Virus record (IMG/VR): IMGVR_UViG_2634166512_000003
Source of the DNA: a virus
Taxonomy: Duplodnaviria > Heunggongvirae > Uroviricota > Caudoviricetes
Reading direction: 5' to 3' (one strand)
DNA: 47,118 bases
In this document: one piece after another, positions 3,272 through 38,294 of the stretch
Position numbering within the stretch: the first letter of the stretch is position 1
Layout: each line of letters starts with the position of its first letter
The notes under the pieces: model-generated
Told to the model about the DNA's origin: nothing
The model's input: the letters and a program-made list of their open reading frames with translations, nothing else
Databases searched by the model: none
Made by a program: the position numbers and the translations under genes

Positions 3272-5490
3272 GCTGTTTGCTCCTGTGCGGCGGCGAGAGC
3301 GGCGAGGCGTTCGGTTTTGATTTCATTCAAACGGCGCAGGCGCGAACCAAGATAAGTTGAATACTCCTTATCACCTTTGGATTCTGCGGCTTTGCGGTGA
3401 ACTTCTACTTCCCGCGCAATAAGGCCATAGACTTTATTAACTTCATTGGGGGTTACGGCTGCAGCCAGTGTTTTGGCAACACCTGAGAGTCGTTCATCCA
3501 GTTCTTCACGCAGTCGGGTAGCATCCTCTGCTTTCTCGCTTGCCTTCTTAATACCGTATTCTGTATTCAGCTCGGCGGTGTAGGCACTATCGTTATGCAT
3601 ATCCATATAAACATCTGCCGCAAATCCCAGATGAGATAGTGCTTTGACGGTGGCATCAGTAAGAGACTTTTTGGAGGCCTCTTTTTCCATTACCAGTGCC
3701 CCTTTGTTATTTTTTGATATGTAATCCGTGTGGCCATATGACGGAATAAATCCTTTCACTCCGTTCCAGACGTACCAGAGATCTATCCGGATGGTGTGTA
3801 CTGACAGGCAGAACAGGGAGCCGTCAGCATCCCTGACAGGTTTTTGTCCAATAATTTTCCCTGTCTGATCCTGTATAGGTTCAAGTAATGGCACACCGCG
3901 ATCCACTCGCTCCTCCTTGATTTCAACTCCCCAACCAATGCCTTCCATTCCCAGCACTTCAGTCGCACGCATCAAAATATATTGTGCGCGTATGGAGTGC
4001 AGTCCTGCACCGTAATCATTATGTGTGACATACGCAGGATCGGTCCGCTGAACGCGATTCCAGATAGCCAAATTTGCTTTGCTCTGGTCATCATTCATTG
4101 CTGACAGATAATGCTCCATGCGAATTGATGCAGTTTTTTCCTCGGTATGGATCCGCTCAACCAGAGCGTCAACGTTCTGCACCAGGTCTTTTACCTGCTC
4201 GCTAAGTTTTTCTTGTGGAGGAGTCTCTTCTTCCAGGATAACAGTTACAGATTCCCGCTGTGATACGGCGTTATTTTCTGGTACGCCATACACATGGCGG
4301 GGCGTGACAAACTGCTCACGCAACTGCTGCAAACTACGCTCTCCAGCATTTGCTGCTTCGCTTTTTTCGCCCTGATTTGAGGGGGGTTCTGACATCATCC
4401 CATCGATTGAGAATCGCCCGCCGCCGTGGTTGGTGACTTTTACATCACCCTTTGGTGCTGCGTCCTTTGGCTTCTCTTCAACAGCATTTGCATCACGCTG
4501 CCCGTTAGCTTGCAGCCAGTTGTCGATGTGACTGCGCAGGGATTGCGGGAAATGGTACGTGTCTTTTGCGGGGGCACTCTGAACGACACCGAATACGGAT
4601 GCCCGGTCATAGGAAAGGATCTGATCCGTTGTGCGCAAGGCCATTGACCAGCGTTTAAAATCCTCCCGATCCTGGCTGATTATTTCGTCTGCCGCTTTCA
4701 GGACGCTGGGGGTGATTTTTTCCGGGCCAACGGGTAACAGAGCGCAGGCAATTTCACGATCCAGTGTAGCGTGAGTCTGTTTGTAAGGACGTGCGGATGC
4801 TGTTTCTGGTTTTACCTCCGGCAGCATTTCATCGCGTTTACCGGGATTCTCTACCCATTTTTTTATAAATTTGGAGATAGTCCAACTGGTCGGGTTTTGT
4901 TCCTGGGTATCGCAACTTGCCAAAATTGCATGTACCAGATTATTCAATCCAGCAATATGCATGTACTCGATGGGCTTACACGCCACCATGGCATCAAGAA
5001 CGATGCGGTTAAACGCGTCAACCTCATCCTCACTGTCAGTATCACTGTTGTCGAGCATCTCCAGGTATTCACGCGTCTGCGCAAGCAATTCACTGTTGAC
5101 TTCGTTGGCGTCGTGGCTGAACAGCAGAACGGCGGCGAATCGTTCACGAGCCGGCAGTTTCATCAGGTCGTTAACCTGTGCGATATCTGCTGAACCGCTA
5201 TCTACAACGGGGGTGTTAACTACCCATTTTTCGCCATCAAAACTGTGTTCTGTGGCGAACGTCTCATCAAACTCACCAACGCCTGGGCGCGGTTGGCCCG
5301 GGGCATCTTCCCAGATTTTAGGTTTGAAATAGTTGTCGCCGTGGTCAGGGTAGGCTTCCCACAATTTGCCGATGATGATGTTCTCGGCAACTTTTTTGTT
5401 AGGGGCGTCGATGGCGATGGCCAGCGCCGGGATCGCGCCGTTTTTGAGCGCGCCTTTTTTCGCTTCTAACAAGCCGTTAAAAATGGTCAT
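3268..5490 (-). CDS. large phage recombination protein: C-terminal Rad52/Sak/ERF-like single-strand annealing domain with about 400-aa N-terminal extension of unknown function
   Basis: 740-aa ORF with GAGGAAAGACC RBS; C-terminal half contains KKSLTDATVKALSHLGFAADVY, resembling the K-x-x-TDA-x-K-x-A-...-G-x-G-...-Y signature of Rad52-like annealing proteins; N-terminal half not recognised. Confidence 0.5.
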   Translation of the reverse strand: MTIFNGLLEAKKGALKNGAIPALAIAIDAPNKKVAENIIIGKLWEAYPDHGDNYFKPKIWEDAPGQPRPGVGEFDETFATEHSFDGEKWVVNTPVVDSGSADIAQVNDLMKLPARERFAAVLLFSHDANEVNSELLAQTREYLEMLDNSDTDSEDEVDAFNRIVLDAMVACKPIEYMHIAGLNNLVHAILASCDTQEQNPTSWTISKFIKKWVENPGKRDEMLPEVKPETASARPYKQTHATLDREIACALLPVGPEKITPSVLKAADEIISQDREDFKRWSMALRTTDQILSYDRASVFGVVQSAPAKDTYHFPQSLRSHIDNWLQANGQRDANAVEEKPKDAAPKGDVKVTNHGGGRFSIDGMMSEPPSNQGEKSEAANAGERSLQQLREQFVTPRHVYGVPENNAVSQRESVTVILEEETPPQEKLSEQVKDLVQNVDALVERIHTEEKTASIRMEHYLSAMNDDQSKANLAIWNRVQRTDPAYVTHNDYGAGLHSIRAQYILMRATEVLGMEGIGWGVEIKEERVDRGVPLLEPIQDQTGKIIGQKPVRDADGSLFCLSVHTIRIDLWYVWNGVKGFIPSYGHTDYISKNNKGALVMEKEASKKSLTDATVKALSHLGFAADVYMDMHNDSAYTAELNTEYGIKKASEKAEDATRLREELDERLSGVAKTLAAAVTPNEVNKVYGLIAREVEVHRKAAESKGDKEYSTYLGSRLRRLNEIKTERLAALAAAQEQTA

Positions 5491-5520
5491 TGGTCTTTCC
5501 TCATTACAGGTCAGTGGTTT

Positions 5521-5841
5521 TTAGTAGGGGAGCTCATCGGTATCTGGCGTGTATTCGATGCAAAGTAACTGCTGGATTTTGTCATCGATAGCAGCAATAC
5601 GCTGTTGAGCGTCGGCGGCTGTATTCTGTTTTTGCTCACGCAGCTGCTCGACCTGCAAACCGATGATGTCGATTGGCTGGGGCTGGTTGACGGTAATTTC
5701 AATTTCGCGGCTTTCCAGAAGGATGTACCTGTCTGGAAAATTTTTTGACATATCAACCGTCGCAATAAACAGCTTTTCATGGCTGAAAGTTGAAGTTGCA
5801 TAATGAATAAAGAGTGTTACTGGGATGGTGCGCGCTTCCAT
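5521..5841 (-). CDS. hypothetical phage protein (106 aa)
   Basis: ORF with AAGGAG RBS upstream of ATG at 5841. Confidence 0.45.
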   Translation of the reverse strand: MEARTIPVTLFIHYATSTFSHEKLFIATVDMSKNFPDRYILLESREIEITVNQPQPIDIIGLQVEQLREQKQNTAADAQQRIAAIDDKIQQLLCIEYTPDTDELPY

Positions 5842-6689
5842 AGCGACTCCTTGGTGATGTATACTCGGGACCGATCAGCGAATATTGATCAGCTTCCATA
5901 GCGTCAGTGTCGTTGGTCTTTCCTCATCACAAGTTTGGTCACTTGTGATAAATCCGAATGGTTTGGTCGCCGTTCGGGGTAACTGGCCCGCCTTGTGCGG
6001 GTCTTTTGCTATCTAAAGGGTGCCGGTTACGTTTCCGGCGTCGTTATGTTTCCATCACGACCGTACGGGGCTGGTCTTTCCTGTTTTGAGCTGGTCAGGC
6101 TCATGGTCAACGCTGGTCAGGCGTGGTACTTCCTCCGGTCTTTCCCTGGTGTCACGCTGCGGGTTTGGCCTCTCCTGTTGGGGACTCAGGCACAGCGATA
6201 AAACCTGGCTGTGTGAAAAAATGGCCCATCGTGCGGACTGGGCAAAGACTAAACACAGCAAATTGATGATGGGCGCCCGGAATCGAACCGGGTAACGGGC
6301 AGGGAGTTCCCGTTAAACACCTGTTCACCACAACCGGGAGCGCACTCCGCCATTTCAAAATTTAACGACAAAGCTCAAAGTTGAGTCGATGAAGTGCGCT
6401 CTCGTGTTGTAGCCAGGACTCTTCCCTGGTGGTCACACCGTATCGCCTTGATGGTGAATCAATCGCTCATACCTGGCTGTGGCTTGCACATTCCGGCTAC
6501 CTGCTATGGAGACAACGCGTTAAGGCTCCGCTTCCATCCAGACCGCTTCGACACATGTGCCATATGCCGGCGAAGTCTTTCCCTCTGTCATCGTGTTGGC
6601 GCCGACGCGCAAAATTTGATGCCGTCTTTCCGGCTGTCAGAACGTGTTTCTGAACAACTGCCGCTGGGTAAGCGTTGTTGATGAAAGTG

Positions 6690-6750
6690 ACTTTACAATT
6701 TGTATTTGTAATGGTCAACGTATTTTTAAAAAATAATTTGTAGTTAGGGG
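6690..6750. promoter_or_regulatory. putative leftward operator/promoter region (OL/PL-like) downstream of repressor gene, with ATTTGTA-type repeats
   Basis: acaatttgtatttgtaatgg and aataatttgtagtt share the ATTTGTA(A/T)T motif also found in the repressor/cro intergenic region. Confidence 0.3.
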
Positions 6751-6837
6751 CAAAAAAATATTCACTGTGTAAAGGTGTTTTTGTGTTAGGGGGAAAGTTG
6801 CATGCCAGCAGCGGCTGGCCTGAAAATTTGAACTGAA

Positions 6838-7251
6838 CTATTTTGTCTGGTTTTTGGCTTCAAGTAGTTCTTTTAGCAGTAGATCGAAGTGCTCTCTTTT
6901 TTCTTTTAGCTCATTGATTAATTTATTTTTTTCGCTCTCAGGCAGTCCTCTGAATAGTTGCAGTAGAGCCTGTTCTTGCGGGGTTAGTTCTTGATTGTAA
7001 TTACCCGGGTGTAGCGTGGATTCATCCAAATATTCCCCTTCATTCATGAAGAAAAAATGAACAGGGTATCCGGTCACTTTTGCTAGCTTGTCTAATTTAT
7101 CTTTTCTTGGAGTTACCCCATTACACCATGCCTGAACTGATTGAGCCGTAACCCCAATATGGCGAGCTAACTCAGATTGAGACCAGCCTAAGTCTTTTAG
7201 AATCCGTTGTAGTCGGCTAGCAAAAGCCATGTTTTTCGTTTTTGTGTTCAT
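6838..7251 (-). CDS. prophage repressor, DicA-like (XRE-family HTH N-terminus, no autopeptidase domain)
   Basis: HTH region LKDLGWSQSELARHIGVTAQSVQAWCNG; C-terminal LLQLFRGLPESEKNKL resembles DicA as recalled; divergent from a Cro-like gene; ORF-track start at 7266 is TTG, first ATG at 7251 preferred. Confidence 0.75.
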   Translation of the reverse strand: MNTKTKNMAFASRLQRILKDLGWSQSELARHIGVTAQSVQAWCNGVTPRKDKLDKLAKVTGYPVHFFFMNEGEYLDESTLHPGNYNQELTPQEQALLQLFRGLPESEKNKLINELKEKREHFDLLLKELLEAKNQTK

Positions 7252-7266
7252 ACCGTAAGGATACAA

Positions 7267-7349
7267 GGTTTAATTGTAGGGAGCATTGCAAATATAATTT
7301 GTAATTACAGTTATGATTTGTAATGATGGCGCGGACACAAGGAGTCCAT
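7267..7349. promoter_or_regulatory. divergent operator/promoter region between repressor and cro-like genes
   Basis: Contains perfect 10-bp palindrome TGTAATTACA, two ATTTGTAAT direct repeats, a TATAAT hexamer and TTGCAA; AAGGAG RBS before cro-like ATG at 7350. Confidence 0.45.
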
Positions 7350-7580
7350 ATGGATAAACAACTGCAAGACAAAATTCTTTCCGTAATGAGTCAATCCGAG
7401 TTAGGGCGGCGATTAGGGAAAAAACCACAAACGGTAAGCCTCTGGTTCAAAGGAAGGGTTCCCGGTGAAGAGGTTTTGCGCACATCTGAAGCTCTTGAAT
7501 GGCGCGTGACCCCCCATGATCTTAGACCGGATCTTTACCCAAACCCAGATGACAGCTTGCCTAAAACGAAAGCAGCTTAA
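7350..7580 (+). CDS. Cro-like / YdaS-family HTH regulator
   Basis: Small protein with HTH (LGKKPQTVSLWFKG) divergent from repressor; start at ATG 7350 with AAGGAG RBS rather than ORF-track 7323. Confidence 0.65.
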   Translation: MDKQLQDKILSVMSQSELGRRLGKKPQTVSLWFKGRVPGEEVLRTSEALEWRVTPHDLRPDLYPNPDDSLPKTKAA

Positions 7581-7638: not shown

Positions 7639-8115
7639 ATGGAAAACCAAGAGGAATTACAAAAAGAGATTTTGACCTGGGCGGCAAGGGCAGGGCAGGA
7701 ACTCGTCACGATTGAAATCTGCCGGGCCTGGTTCAGTCAGGGACGCAATGATGAGTTGAGACTACATGAATTTGAGGACGCGGACGGCAATGTGGACTGG
7801 AGAGCCATCAACAACAATCGGCAGAAAATCTTTCGCTGGTTACGTGGCGAGACAACGGCGGCGCGCCGAAAAACTCAGGTGCTGGCCAGTGTGATGAAAG
7901 CCGTGCTACCCGCAGAACGGCGGGCACGTCTGGAGTCGCTGGGCGATCCCGTTTTGCTGGCAACGCTGGCGGCAAAAGAAGGGGTGGAAGCGATTAACGC
8001 TGTACATCTCCACTTCGCGCCAGAGTTAACTATCCAGGAAATTGACGAAGCAATAGCGGCGCTGGTAGCGACGCGAGGAGCAGTGATACGCACTGCGCAA
8101 GACCACCATGCATGA
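7639..8115 (+). CDS. YdaT-like early regulatory protein (CII-position gene)
   Basis: 158-aa ORF immediately after cro-like gene, as in ydaS-ydaT pairs of Rac-type prophages; assignment by synteny and recalled similarity. Confidence 0.45.
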   Translation: MENQEELQKEILTWAARAGQELVTIEICRAWFSQGRNDELRLHEFEDADGNVDWRAINNNRQKIFRWLRGETTAARRKTQVLASVMKAVLPAERRARLESLGDPVLLATLAAKEGVEAINAVHLHFAPELTIQEIDEAIAALVATRGAVIRTAQDHHA

Positions 8116-8154
8116 GCGCCTGACCAGCGTTTAACTTATACCGAGGAAAGACCG

Positions 8155-8379
8155 ATGTTAAGACATATTGACCGCATTACCTGGCGTAACGGCTGGCACC
8201 TGAATGGGCGCCCGGCACATGTTGCAGAGATCCAACCTATTTTTGATGGGCGTATGGCTGCCGCGCTTTCGGTGTGGGAGCAGTATGAATCCAGGAAGGT
8301 CGAGTTGCGCGACAAAGGGCTGAGCAATGCGGACTATGAAGCCGGTTGTCGTCAGATAGCCGAAGCTCTGGAGATCTGA
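8155..8379 (+). CDS. hypothetical phage protein (74 aa)
   Basis: ATG preceded by GAGGAAAGACC motif; stop 2 nt before next start. Confidence 0.45.
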   Translation: MLRHIDRITWRNGWHLNGRPAHVAEIQPIFDGRMAAALSVWEQYESRKVELRDKGLSNADYEAGCRQIAEALEI

Positions 8380-12062: not shown

Positions 12063-13412
12063 GCGTCAATACGGTGCTCCGTTGACGCTTACCGTGTTTC
12101 ACCGTCGCGCTTTCAGCGAAATCAAAAAGCAGGCACTGGCGAACGGCATGATCGACATGTTGTTTATCAGCGAAGCGCTGGGCGGTTCCAGCCTTGCGGA
12201 TCTGTCTCAAATATCCCGGATCCCGGCAACGGCACCGAATCTGAAAGGCTATGCCGGGAAAATGGTGCGGGCATGGCGGAGCCGCAAAATGGCGGCATTG
12301 TTGCAATCTGGCGCGGATGGTATCCGTAACGCTGTAAACCAGAGTCAGCGTGATGAGGTTATTGAATCTCATGTTGCTCAGGTGCTGGATATGAGCGCCG
12401 CTACCGGCACAGTCCAGCCGGTACACATCAAAGAGCTGTTACCGCTCTACATTGACACCGTTGATAAACGGATGTCTGGTGACGCGCAGGAAATGATGCT
12501 GAAAACCGGAGTCGAGGATCTGGATGTCGCCCTGGGCGGTATCAACATGACCGATCTTGTTGTGGTTGCCGGTCGTCCAGGCATGGGGAAAACGGAATTT
12601 ACCCTGAAGATTATCGATGGCGTTACCGCAGATGGCGGCGGCGCACTGTTTTTCAGCATGGAAATGGGCGCTCAGCAGATTGTTGAACGTACCGTTGCCG
12701 GGGCTGGGAATATGTCAACGTCGCGTCTGCGTAATCCAAAAGAAATGGACGATGAGGATTTGACCAGATTAACCGCCGCGCTTGCAATCATGCAGGATCG
12801 CGATATCTGGATTGTTGATGCCACTGATTTGACGATTGAGCAGATCCGCGCCATTGCAGAGACTCATAAACGCCGTTATCCGCACCTGAAGTTGATTGGT
12901 GTTGATTACATGGGCCTGATCAAAAAACCGAAGGCCGAGCGCCACGATCTCGCTGTCGGGCATATCTCCCGCAACATGAAGACTATGGCCATGCGTCTGC
13001 ATACCCCTGTTTTTGCTCTTAGCCAGCTTTCCCGCCAGGTGGATTCTCGACCTGCTGGCCAGCGTCGCCCGGTGATGTCGGACCTGCGCGATTCCGGCAG
13101 TGTTGAGCAGGACGCTGACAGCATTTTGTTTTTGTACCGCGATGAAGTTTACACACCTGATTCACCTGCAAAGGGTATCGCCGAGGTGATTATCGGTAAA
13201 AACCGTTCTGGCGGGGCAGGTGAAATTATTTATCAGGAATTCCGGAATGGGCATTTCCTGCCAATTGATCAACACGTAGCACGCGAAAAAATACGCATCC
13301 AGAAGGAGGCAGAGCAACCGAGAAAACGTGAAAAACGGTATTCAAACAAAAACTTTAATACGGACCCATTTTAACCACGCATGACCAGCGTGAAATAACC
13401 GAGGAAAGACCA

Positions 13413-13814
13413 ATGACCCAATTAATTAACCACACGAGTGCACACTATAGTGACGACGGTAAAAACTACCTGGATTCAATTCTGTGGCACATGAACGCAG
13501 CCGCGCGAGCACGTACCCGCTCGACATATTGCCCGCCACCTAAAAACACTGACGTTGTGGTAATTGCAAAACCTGAGCACGTAGCAGTTATTCGCCCGGC
13601 AGAAATAACCTCAGGGACCGCCAAAACACATACCGGCGTTGTTATTAAAAATACTGGCGAGCGCACAGTAAAACTCCGCGAAACAGCGACTGCGTGGTCT
13701 GCGGGTGTAAGGGAGAACTACGATAAAAAAACAGGTTACCGCTTAGGCGCATCAGGCAGCACCCGGTTGTTACTCGACACCGTGAAGCCCATCAGGAAGA
13801 AGGGCAAAAAATAA
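13413..13814 (+). CDS. hypothetical phage protein (nin-like region)
   Basis: ATG preceded by GAGGAAAGACC motif. Confidence 0.45.
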   Translation: MTQLINHTSAHYSDDGKNYLDSILWHMNAAARARTRSTYCPPPKNTDVVVIAKPEHVAVIRPAEITSGTAKTHTGVVIKNTGERTVKLRETATAWSAGVRENYDKKTGYRLGASGSTRLLLDTVKPIRKKGKK

Positions 13815-14677: not shown

Positions 14678-14769
14678 ATTGACTTAGAAAAAGCCCGGGG
14701 CTATAGTTTCCGCGCAGCCGCAAAATCGGTTGCCGGGATTTGCACCCCGGATATCTAAAAGGCGACAAC

Positions 14770-14790
14770 GACGCGCCAGCGTCTTTTTTA
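14770..14790 (+). terminator. rho-independent terminator-like hairpin (possibly bidirectional)
   Basis: GACGC-GCCA-GCGTC stem-loop followed by TTTTTT; A-rich tract upstream; embedded in longer inverted repeat CGACAA...TTGTCG. Confidence 0.5.
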
Positions 14791-14949
14791 TTGTCGTGCG
14801 CACAGCCACATCCGCGATTTATGGTGGGGCGTGTAGGGGAGTCGAAAGGCTCGCCGGGTCCTTTTAGCCGGTAGTGCAAACCCTGCATGTCTCACCACCC
14901 AAAGATTTGCACCTGAGGGGGGTGATTATCCGACTAAAAGGAAATCGCT

Positions 14950-37377: not shown

Positions 37378-38294
37378 TAACATCAACAGTTCAGAACTCG
37401 ATAGTGAAAACTATTGATATGAGTCTGCTGCCGCCGCCAGCATTCGTTAAAACCCCGTTATTTTCAGATGTTAAATCTAATCTACTGTCAGAGCTGCAGA
37501 TATTATATCCACAATTTAACGCACTCCTGGAGTCAGACCCGGCAGTTAAACTGCTGGAAATAGTTGCATACAGAGAAATCATTATTACAGCTCGGGTAAA
37601 TCAGGGGATGCTCGCTGTATTGCTCGCGTTTGCAAAAGGGACTGACCTCGACCAGATTGGCGCTAATTTTGACTGCCTGCGGCTGTTGATAACGCCAGCT
37701 AATCCCGACTCAGTCCCCCCGACTGAAGCGGTTTACGAGAGTGACGACGAGTATCGTCATCGCATACAACTATCATGGTACGCGCGTAATACTGCCGGCA
37801 GTACAAACGCGTATAACTATTTCGCGCTATCGAGTGATCCCGATGTTCTGTCAGCGCAGGCATACGGCCCGCCTGTGACTCAGCCAGGGTACGTCGATAT
37901 GTACGTTTTGTCCCGGACAGGCGACGGTGTACCCCCGCAATCACTACTGAATACAGTGAATGCGGCCCTGTCTCCTGACGACACTCGGCCACTAACTGAT
38001 TTCGTGACCGTAAAACCTGCGTCGAACCTGAATTACCGGGTTGAGGCCGTTATCGTAGCGGGGCTCGGTCCCGACCAGAACGTATTACTCAACGGCGCGC
38101 AGAGCGACCTGGCGGTCTACGTGACCACGCAACATAAAATCGGGGCAACAGCAGCCCTGTCGGGAATTTACGACGCAATACATCGTGACGGCACCGAACG
38201 TGTGATTCTGATATCGCCGACAGAGGACGTCATTGCAGGTGTCGGACAGGCACCATATTGCACCGAAATTAAACTCAGCGTACAGATGGGGTGA
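37374..38294 (+). CDS. baseplate protein J-like
   Basis: 306-aa ORF in V-W-J-I order; assignment by synteny and size. Confidence 0.7.
   Translation: MITSTVQNSIVKTIDMSLLPPPAFVKTPLFSDVKSNLLSELQILYPQFNALLESDPAVKLLEIVAYREIIITARVNQGMLAVLLAFAKGTDLDQIGANFDCLRLLITPANPDSVPPTEAVYESDDEYRHRIQLSWYARNTAGSTNAYNYFALSSDPDVLSAQAYGPPVTQPGYVDMYVLSRTGDGVPPQSLLNTVNAALSPDDTRPLTDFVTVKPASNLNYRVEAVIVAGLGPDQNVLLNGAQSDLAVYVTTQHKIGATAALSGIYDAIHRDGTERVILISPTEDVIAGVGQAPYCTEIKLSVQMG

Follow-up and report, generated by a model that had tools for sequence, protein, structure and literature searches.

The put RNAs of phages HK022 and HK639 suppress downstream terminators in cis and depend on the zinc-binding domain of the RNA polymerase beta-prime subunit, and among host RNAs RprA is a small RNA (sRNA) regulated by Rcs. 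The put RNAs are located just downstream of the leftward and rightward early promoters, PL and PR, need no phage protein and are active even when untethered from the polymerase (PMC9378689), and lambdoid phages without an N gene are presumed to use put-like RNAs (PMC12315714). ROOL and GOLLD are structured non-coding RNAs whose function is not known and which are typically found in prophages, often beside transfer RNA (tRNA) genes (PMC5737381, PMC12286853), while the processed 47-nt 3' form of RprA is active by itself (PMC9262595). We examined a 996-bp stretch (positions 5842-6837) of an Escherichia coli prophage contained in a viral record of 47,118 nt (IMGVR_UViG_2634166512_000003; hereafter, the window) and found in it a 164-nt pseudoknotted RNA element, M1, encoded on the minus strand (6407-6570). 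An earlier note on this DNA had described the stretch as poor in open reading frames (ORFs) and had offered two readings of it, a graveyard of deleted early genes or a long non-coding leader of the early-left operon. The flagged stretch is a modular early-leader RNA, not dead DNA, and M1 almost certainly represents a family of non-coding structured RNAs, apparently undescribed.

In a blastn comparison with phage genomes, only about 170 nt (6398-6569) were common to unrelated phages, including Salmonella SPN1S and PAT1, Enterobacter Tyrion, Klebsiella SopranoGao and the P1-like SJ46, always in unannotated DNA. M1 contains a near-invariant 19-mer, GGUAGCCGGAAUGUGCAAG, at 6502-6484 (-). An exact search with this 19-mer (GGTAGCCGGAATGTGCAAG) recovered at least 120 viral contigs, which yielded 105 distinct M1 cores with a median pairwise identity of 62%. 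Since this first set of homologues was selected by the exact 19-mer, the invariance of the 19-mer within it is circular, and we checked it with a pattern taken from a different M1 block, using one genome per species. This pattern gave 56 matches: 26 had the 19-mer (25 of them exactly), and the other 30 were without it, about the number that a rough estimate predicts by chance. The 26 genome loci with the 19-mer were all from Enterobacterales, except for one short contig binned as Bacillota. Our own covariance model recognized a single M1 copy in the window (140.9 bits, E 3e-38) and its scores ranged from 125 to 161 bits across all the genome loci, P1 and mEp390 (125-161 bits throughout). Together, the carriers comprise at least 120 viral contigs, the genomes of 26 Enterobacterales species and the phages P1, P7, D6, mEp390 and SPN1S, and M1 is confined to temperate phages of Enterobacterales. 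The Bacillota contig (JAIIAN010000430.1, 1.7 kb; our locus L183) comes from a metagenome-assembled genome labelled "Bacillota bacterium" and contains a complete M1 (159 bits); it probably represents a wrongly binned fragment of an enterobacterial phage. We also observed that BUCT708 (OM816834, L001) and BUCT709, both named "Stenotrophomonas phage", share the gene order of this E. coli prophage and a leader 72% identical to the one studied here; their stated host looks doubtful, given that M1 was otherwise found only in Enterobacterales.

According to RNAalifold and manual inspection, M1 folds into five nested helices, including an invariant GCACAU/AUGUGC helix, and also holds a variable hairpin and a hairpin with a GAAGAG loop. 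An H-type pseudoknot is formed by a 4-bp stem with a YUCACCA loop, in which CACC pairs with a downstream GGUG, and this pairing covaries (CACC/GGUG to AACC/GGUU). When the pairing was tested on 32 M1 sequences less than 93% identical to each other, 97.7% of the cells could pair, compared to 24-44% with slid partners, and 10 pairs had changed on both sides. The separately ascertained genome set gave the same pairing figures, with an alignment that was fitted to the model. Several junction nucleotides are unpaired and invariant (AGCGGUC, GGUAGCC, GGCGAU and GUGUGAC). Single-sequence folding was only mildly better than that of shuffled sequences (z about -2.2), which is not decisive.

As the earlier note had stated, there is no credible gene in 5900-6837: the longest ORFs (95 and 91 amino acids) are both on the plus strand and run antisense to the conserved RNA, and the sole plausible coding piece is a 40-amino-acid ORF at 5899-5777 (-). 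No protein-coding gene is conserved across the stretch, apart from a small ORF at its end. A protein-coding M1 was rejected as well, as a reading frame was kept on neither strand: the spacings between conserved M1 blocks fell in all three mod-3 classes (57/11/15 and 17/18/48), and the sequence lengths modulo 3 were distributed 9/15/8. Some GenBank records place a "hypothetical protein" coding sequence over M1 (mEp390_036, at 2571-2813 of locus L130; BUCT709; BUCT554; JL22; ST11-OXA245phi3.2); judged from the frame, which varies among homologues, these are probably spurious. Clustering of the ORFs of 127 loci showed no conserved protein partner beside M1, only repressors, structural genes and spurious ORFs over the RNA.

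Other known RNA classes did not account for the element either. A tRNA or transfer-messenger RNA in the flagged stretch was discarded, given that ARAGORN detected only the serU tRNA (892-981) in the window, and so was a CsrB-type CsrA sponge, since GGA occurs 18 times in 785 nt against 14.6 +/- 2.9 expected. The scan for structured RNAs that the earlier note had proposed gave a divided result: our own model found the structured RNA, but no Rfam 15 family matched M1 at gathering or permissive thresholds in cmscan runs over the window, 18 related loci and the P1 locus, where only tRNA, isrK, C4 and int-alpA were recovered. The core sequences of M1, M3, M4 and M5 appeared in no paper of the literature searched, and no description of M1 was found in the literature on ROOL/GOLLD, the P1 trnI/ban region, prophage sRNAs, RprA homologues or put and antitermination.

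Regarding transcription, a predicted sigma-70 promoter (TTGACC, 17 nt, TAAAGT) lies at 6718-6690 (-), with a transcript start expected near 6683, and it was the sole promoter-like site in the scan of 5400-7400, with no further one before the early-left genes. Two operator-like sites overlap and flank it. The first (6693-6713) is 81% identical to 7305-7325 and the second (6729-6746) is 89% identical to 7290-7307, both in the intergenic region between the repressor and cro genes, and the 9-mer ATTTGTAAT has only three copies in the 47 kb, at 6704, 7297 and 7316. The heteroimmune relative BUCT708 carries a different 16-mer, TTAGGTAAATCTAACA, repeated at the same four positions. Operator copies at both sites form the classical layout of left and right operators (OL/OR), which identifies the promoter as the PL equivalent and the two sites beside it as the OL equivalent. 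In class-A relatives the -35 and -10 positions are kept and the spacer is changed, and conservation among close relatives begins at the -10 region, at about 6700. The 5' leader segment (6571-6684, minus strand), common to seven close relatives, holds small hairpins such as GCCG-GAAAGA-CGGC at 6634-6621, whose stem has gained a compensating base pair in relatives (GCCCG-GAAAGA-CGGGC). M1 begins about 113 nt after the predicted transcript start (10-40 nt in SopranoGao and SPN1S). Altogether, the long non-coding leader suggested by the earlier note fits what we observed, namely a promoter with operator-like sites (6746-6690) followed by about 780 nt of non-coding, conserved and structured RNA, and the stretch is very probably the leader of a repressor-controlled early-left (PL-type) transcript. 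The likeness to the map position of lambda N that the note had pointed out was apt, with no N-like gene present: no ORF lies between the promoter and the terminator, and none was found in the annotation of the left operon with Pfam, PHROG and RefSeq.

M1 is followed on the same strand by M2 (6329-6410), a long hairpin whose basal helix (ACAAC/GUUGU) is followed by an internal loop and then by an 11-bp distal helix (GAGAGCGCACU/AGUGCGCUC); minimum free energy folding also predicts this hairpin. The motif of its 3' strand was present on the sense strand in 93 out of 127 loci (104 sense matches versus 13 antisense), usually 100-200 nt downstream from where the M1 19-mer begins. In 39 distinct versions of the helix, at least 36 could pair at ten positions and 29 at the eleventh, and G-C and A-U pairs replaced each other (at one position, G-C in 17 versions versus A-U in 18). 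Some arrays have M2-type hairpins on both sides of M1, and M2 is probably a processing signal. The commonest 3' strand was GUGCUCUCAGCGUUGUG, with GCUCUUUCC in only 12 of the 104 matches; a boxA of the ribosomal RNA (rRNA) operon type was rejected for this strand, as the resemblance is only loose.

Downstream of M2 we found a degenerate tRNA-like unit (6263-6328, minus strand), comprising an acceptor-like stem (GUGGUG/CAUCAU), a 6-bp arm and a T arm (CCCGG-UUCGAUU-CCGGG). It was not accepted as a true tRNA: ARAGORN reported none, the best Rfam match, to tRNA-Sec, reached 19.3 bits where the gathering score is 47, and only the T arm is canonical. The next module, M5 (6208-6262, minus strand), is a copy of the RprA 3' half with an intrinsic terminator (stem 6243-6224, U run 6221-6216) that was also picked up by the terminator scan. 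The Rfam RprA model (RF00034) matched 6324-6214 with 37.4 bits (E 0.022), near-identical at model positions 60-108; a full-length RprA was rejected, as this score is below the cut-off of 70 and only the 3' half aligns well. Positions 6262-6216 read UUGCUGUGUUUAGUCUUUGCCCAGUCCGCACGAUGGGCCAUUUUUU, nearly identical to the last 47 nt or so of RprA, including its terminator hairpin. M5 is bracketed by GCUGUGU and ACACAGC, a pairing supported by the fold; on this model the bracket could pair and sequester the RprA-like sequence upon read-through. M5-type modules (GCUGUGUGUAGUCUU, a G+C-rich hairpin and a U run) were present in 28 loci, always on the sense strand (e.g. L001, L011, L013 and L022), and such phage copies of the RprA 3' half may represent mimicry of the host sRNA.

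In diverse arrays, the promoter is followed by M1 either directly or after one other element. In about 66 of 127 loci, and likewise in phage mEp390, the ORF of a CI-type repressor terminates shortly before M1 on the same strand, and a sense-strand terminator lies 100-500 nt upstream of M1 in 52 of about 105 loci, which indicates that M1 opens a new transcription unit. All the tRNA genes within about 1.5-2 kb of M1 were on the M1 strand. In about 30 loci a real tRNA-Arg(UCU) comes after M2, starting 165-230 nt from the start of the M1 19-mer, and in P1-type loci tRNA-Ile2(CAU) ends about 14 nt before M1. Phage P1 itself (NC_005856) has a full M1 (136.6 bits) at 71,023-71,203 (1922-2102 of locus L129), in the unannotated gap between trnI and ban, and P7, D6 and SJ46 also carry the element. 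In SJ46 (about 2400-2460 of locus L006), a 14-codon ORF, MPIISDIQHAWVEC, directly follows M1 and ends in a TAATG that overlaps the ban start codon; it could encode a leader peptide or serve in translational coupling. The array promoter of epsilon15-type phages overlaps a palindrome, in the stretch for which the epsilon15 record gives a repressor-binding site, and the array runs toward the terminase gene. Epsilon15 (AY150271, 1500-1632 of locus L128) keeps only the first 36 nt or so of M1 (18.7 bits), followed by a terminator; the "RNaseIII" feature of its record abuts this remnant, and its SPN1S-type relatives have the full element. Finally, in phage Tyrion an int-alpA RNA (RF02996, 44 bits) is located downstream of the M1 array on the same strand (947-1011 of locus L004, minus strand).

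The part of the leader downstream of M5 is a hairpin-repeat segment (5926-6207, minus strand), recognized by motif enrichment and stem covariation and common to only 4-7 close relatives. It contains two CUGACCA-loop hairpins (6123-6110 and 6101-6088), GGAAAGAC units at 6145 and 6081, a two-way terminator-like hairpin (6003-5985) and a GACCAAA-loop hairpin (5949-5926). The stems covary between the window and the relatives (ACGC/GCGU versus GAGC/GCUC, CCCGC/GCGGG versus CCCAC/GUGGG, and AUCACAAGU/CUUGUGAU versus CCGUAGGG/CCCUACGG). The hairpin loops hold motifs that the earlier note had reported (CUGACCA, GAAAGA and GACCAA), and one of these loops, CUGACCA, is similar to the YUCACCA loop in the pseudoknot hairpin of M1.

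The note had listed two motif units and a duplicated start segment on the minus strand, and we recovered all three there, above chance. CCTGACCAGC is exact at 6121-6112 and 6099-6090, with a plus-strand copy at 8119 and a one-mismatch copy at 13380. AGGAAAGACC is exact at 5924-5915 and 6082-6073, with a one-mismatch copy at 6146-6137, and is also found exactly at genuine gene starts (2320, 5501, 8144 and 13402). CGCTATGGAAGC is located at 5845-5834 and 5903-5892 (2 copies versus 0.18 expected). Over the whole window the excess of the two 10-mers is modest (4 versus 1.8 and 7 versus 2.5 expected), and within the leader RNA there are 5 copies of GGAAAGAC (0.0 expected) and 8 of GACCA (1.9 expected), with none of either on the antisense strand; the 9 copies of GGAAAGAC in the 47 kb are all oriented along transcription. 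The units were also said to sit at gene junctions, which holds for 8111-8157 and 13378-13416 on the plus strand, where a stop codon is followed by a small hairpin (CUGACCA or AUGACCA loop), GAGGAAAGACC and ATG; GAGGAAAGACC also precedes the ATG at 2320 and 5501. Before two rightward genes this arrangement makes a conserved cassette of about 35 nt, with a stop codon, a CGC-(C/A)UGACCA-GCG hairpin, 10-13 nt, GAGGAAAGACC and ATG. Both motifs recur in multiple copies in the PL leader, and it is conceivable that an RNA-binding regulator is common to both sites.

At the end of the stretch, a ribosome-binding site GAGGAAAGACC precedes a former start codon, now ACG (5913-5911), within 5911-5925 (-). 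The relatives read GAGGAAAGACCAATGCC at the equivalent of 5925-5911, and GAGGAAAGACCAATG starts their 37-amino-acid ORF (WCS67726 in BUCT708), which overlaps the start of the next gene. The 40-amino-acid ORF mentioned above (MEADQYSLIGPEYTSPRSRYGSA...; 5777-5899, minus strand) overlaps the start of the 106-amino-acid gene out of frame and keeps the (S/T)LIG(P/S)EYTS(P/T)RSRYGSA stretch of the relatives' small ORF; no Pfam or PHROG family matched it. The two CGCTATGGAAGC copies represent the start segment of the next gene and its duplicate, and the upstream copy sits in a local insertion that is absent from six relatives and supplies a new ATG at 5899. An insertion duplicating the start segment of the next gene thus explains the duplicated start site that the note had described.

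As a mechanism for M1, we favour antitermination acting in cis, tentatively and at somewhat below an even chance; a stable RNA acting in trans is almost as likely. The early-left transcript would begin at the PL equivalent, M1 would fold on the nascent RNA and act in cis on the host transcription machinery, and the polymerase would then read through the M5 terminator, cross the long untranslated stretch and arrive at the early-left genes. M1 would in this way take, in a phage without N, the role that N and nut have in lambda and the put RNA has in HK022, and M2 (as an RNase III signal) and the tRNA or tRNA-like unit (as an RNase P signal) would both release it. In the window a terminator does separate M1 from the early-left genes, and relatives have one there too, with a stronger stem. 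Of the 26 genome loci, 25 have the 19-mer without any change, and it is common to otherwise unrelated phages (P1-type, epsilon15-type and lambdoid), which points to a conserved host partner. Several observations weigh against antitermination. M1 has no detectable similarity to the put RNAs of HK022 and HK639, exceeds twice their size and is built differently; the window has one M1 only, with none in the rightward operon; the epsilon15-type arrays are self-contained units ending in terminators that face the terminase gene, which leaves little or nothing to be expressed downstream; and a stringent scan placed a sense terminator downstream of M1 in only 42 of 114 loci. Moreover, many loci have tRNA genes or M2 hairpins immediately next to M1, as expected for a cargo RNA that is cut out as a stable product, and the M5 terminator stem of the window is weak (5 bp and a wobble pair), so that plain read-through might be enough. 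We consider the statement as a whole, an untranslated PL-type leader with an M1 RNA family and antitermination in cis, to be evenly poised. A broader proposal is possible but doubtful, namely that M1 is a third, structurally unrelated class of RNAs that reprogram the elongation complex alone, serving as the early antitermination device of N-less lambdoid prophages of Enterobacterales and co-opted by P1 and the epsilon15-type phages for untranslated tRNA/sRNA arrays and the ban operon.

The alternative of a trans-acting RNA, which we regard as possible rather than probable, holds that a precursor is made early after induction, from which RNase P (acting at the tRNA or tRNA-like unit) and RNase III (acting at M2-type hairpins) excise M1, alone or together with M2; the released stable RNA would bind a conserved host component (e.g. 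a tRNA-related or defence factor), and the leader would be no more than a convenient place for early expression. M1 would in this respect be comparable to ROOL and GOLLD or to the stable RNAs encoded in the T4 tRNA cluster. The common strand of M1 and its neighbouring tRNA genes, the closeness of tRNA-Arg(UCU) and tRNA-Ile2(CAU), the M2-type hairpins that bracket M1 in several arrays, the terminators that bound many arrays at both ends and the presence of M1 in phages with unrelated early regulation are all in its favour, and a near-invariant 19-mer fits a conserved host target. However, M1 leads protein-coding early-left operons in about half of the loci and is nearly always promoter-proximal, a position that a cargo RNA would not need, and excision is compatible with a role at the polymerase too, since put RNA also works untethered (PMC9378689). 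It is improbable that M1 is a riboswitch-like cis-regulator sensing a ligand or signal and tuning terminator read-through to host physiology: its place in a 5' leader upstream of a terminator and its compact pseudoknotted fold with many invariant unpaired junction nucleotides would suit such a device, but we saw no alternative pairing of M1 with the terminator or M2, many M1 loci are followed by tRNA genes or by nothing that needs regulation, and in P1 the element is mid-operon.

A graveyard, in which early genes were deleted or have decayed and the motifs mark their former junctions, is very unlikely for the bulk of the stretch. It could draw on GAGGAAAGACC with ATG as a genuine ribosome-binding and start cassette at four genes in the window, on the variable copy number of the units among relatives, and on the start codon decayed at 5913-5911 with its compensating duplication. 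Gene decay in fact applies to that one spot (5925-5892, where the ATG of the small ORF became ACG), but not elsewhere: strong purifying and compensatory selection acts on the RNA of 6570-6329 in more than 100 unrelated phage contexts, far beyond this phage lineage, and in the alignment with the 72%-identical relatives the interval is without genes there too, with only the small end ORF conserved. The motif copies, which might have been decayed ribosome-binding sites, are instead mostly loops of small hairpins with covarying stems, all on the transcribed strand. Even less credible is a role of the conserved block as DNA, for example in attachment, replication or packaging, or as a gene for a small protein. 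The GenBank "hypothetical protein" entries over M1 and the 95-amino-acid ORF antisense to it in the window would speak for this, but the frame is not kept between conserved blocks, compensatory changes maintain the pairing, the orientation relative to tRNA genes and promoters is strictly consistent, and positions as varied as the early-left leader, the ban operon and the side of the terminase gene are unlike a single DNA function.

The prophage is integrated beside the serU gene, which encodes tRNA-Ser(CGA). An identical copy of the flagged 996 bp is present in E. coli Z0117EC0040 and TUM11353, where the RefSeq/PGAP annotation has no feature, and sequence from it was matched in 665 out of 5,426 complete E. 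coli genomes (about 12%), 447 of which contained at least 80% of the stretch. A helix-turn-helix repressor gene (7266-6838, minus strand; Pfam HTH_3, PHROG transcriptional repressor) lies upstream of the stretch, and a cro-like gene of the YdaS family diverges from it at 7323. On the minus strand, the repressor gene and the flagged stretch are followed by the 106-amino-acid gene (5841-5521), which has no assigned function, a 740-amino-acid gene assigned to an exonuclease family of PHROG, and then by a Gp157-family gene and the integrase gene. The rightward late-control region contains adjacent matches to isrK (76 bits) and C4 antisense RNA (74 bits) at 14714-14902 (+), which form the Gifsy-type anti-Q regulatory pair; the pair is also present in L015, another M1-bearing locus.

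A folded RNA with a near-invariant 19-nt core has thus been left unannotated in the well-studied P1, between trnI and ban, as well as in P7, D6, mEp390 and SPN1S. If M1 controls elongation, it would explain early-left expression in a large group of N-less lambdoid prophages and would offer a new RNA-only handle on RNA polymerase. If it acts in trans, it would be an enterobacterial counterpart of the tRNA-linked ornate phage RNAs, in tractable systems such as P1 and E. coli K-12 lysogens. The copies of the RprA 3' half in M1 transcripts suggest that phages may tap Rcs/RpoS-linked regulation.

Among the known systems, lambda N and nutL occupy the same map position as the leader: it is what a leftward promoter under repressor control transcribes first, and a terminator and the recombination genes come after it. 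Its small hairpins with purine-rich GAAAGA and GAAGAG loops also recall boxB. The loops are of 6-7 nt, however, and not the boxB pentaloop, there is no N gene, the leader has no boxA consensus (the M2 3' strand is only loosely alike), and the conserved unit is a large folded RNA. With the put RNAs of HK022 and HK639, M1 shares a non-coding RNA element in the nascent early transcript shortly downstream of PL, a phage without N, a terminator downstream, no phage protein to act with and enterobacterial hosts (PMC9378689). A putL-like RNA is annotated in the HK639 record, downstream of the putative pL. M1 was rejected as a put RNA, as our model had no match in the 24-32 kb region of HK022 (E<=1) or in the whole HK639 genome (E<=10); CAUGCGUCG, which is shared with the HK639 putL-like RNA, is too short to count. 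The put RNAs have about 70 nt and two stem-loops, whereas M1 has about 165 nt, with five nested helices, the pseudoknot and a further hairpin; moreover, M1 is single-copy, is absent from the rightward operon and is also found in P1-type and epsilon15-type phages and next to tRNA genes. The HK639 record also has an "M3-like RNA" after cII (37910-37969 of locus L188), which is unrelated to the modules named here.

The arrays also resemble rRNA operons and the T4 tRNA cluster, as untranslated arrays of structured RNAs and tRNAs with long processing-type stems in between, but they contain no rRNA and no convincing boxA, and their cargo is a phage-specific RNA. Regarding RprA, M5 is nearly identical to the processed 47-nt 3' form but lacks the first 60 nt of the host sRNA and forms part of a longer phage transcript; in other phages the M5 hairpin differs and GCUGUGUGUAGUCUU is kept. 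Finally, M1 is, like ROOL and GOLLD, structured, non-coding, prophage-borne and often linked to tRNA genes. The Rfam models of these two families did not match M1 in the cmscan runs described above, and the RNAs differ in size (165 nt versus roughly 580-800 nt), in distribution (Enterobacterales versus Firmicutes or rumen and lake samples) and in the promoter-proximal position that M1 occupies in early operons.

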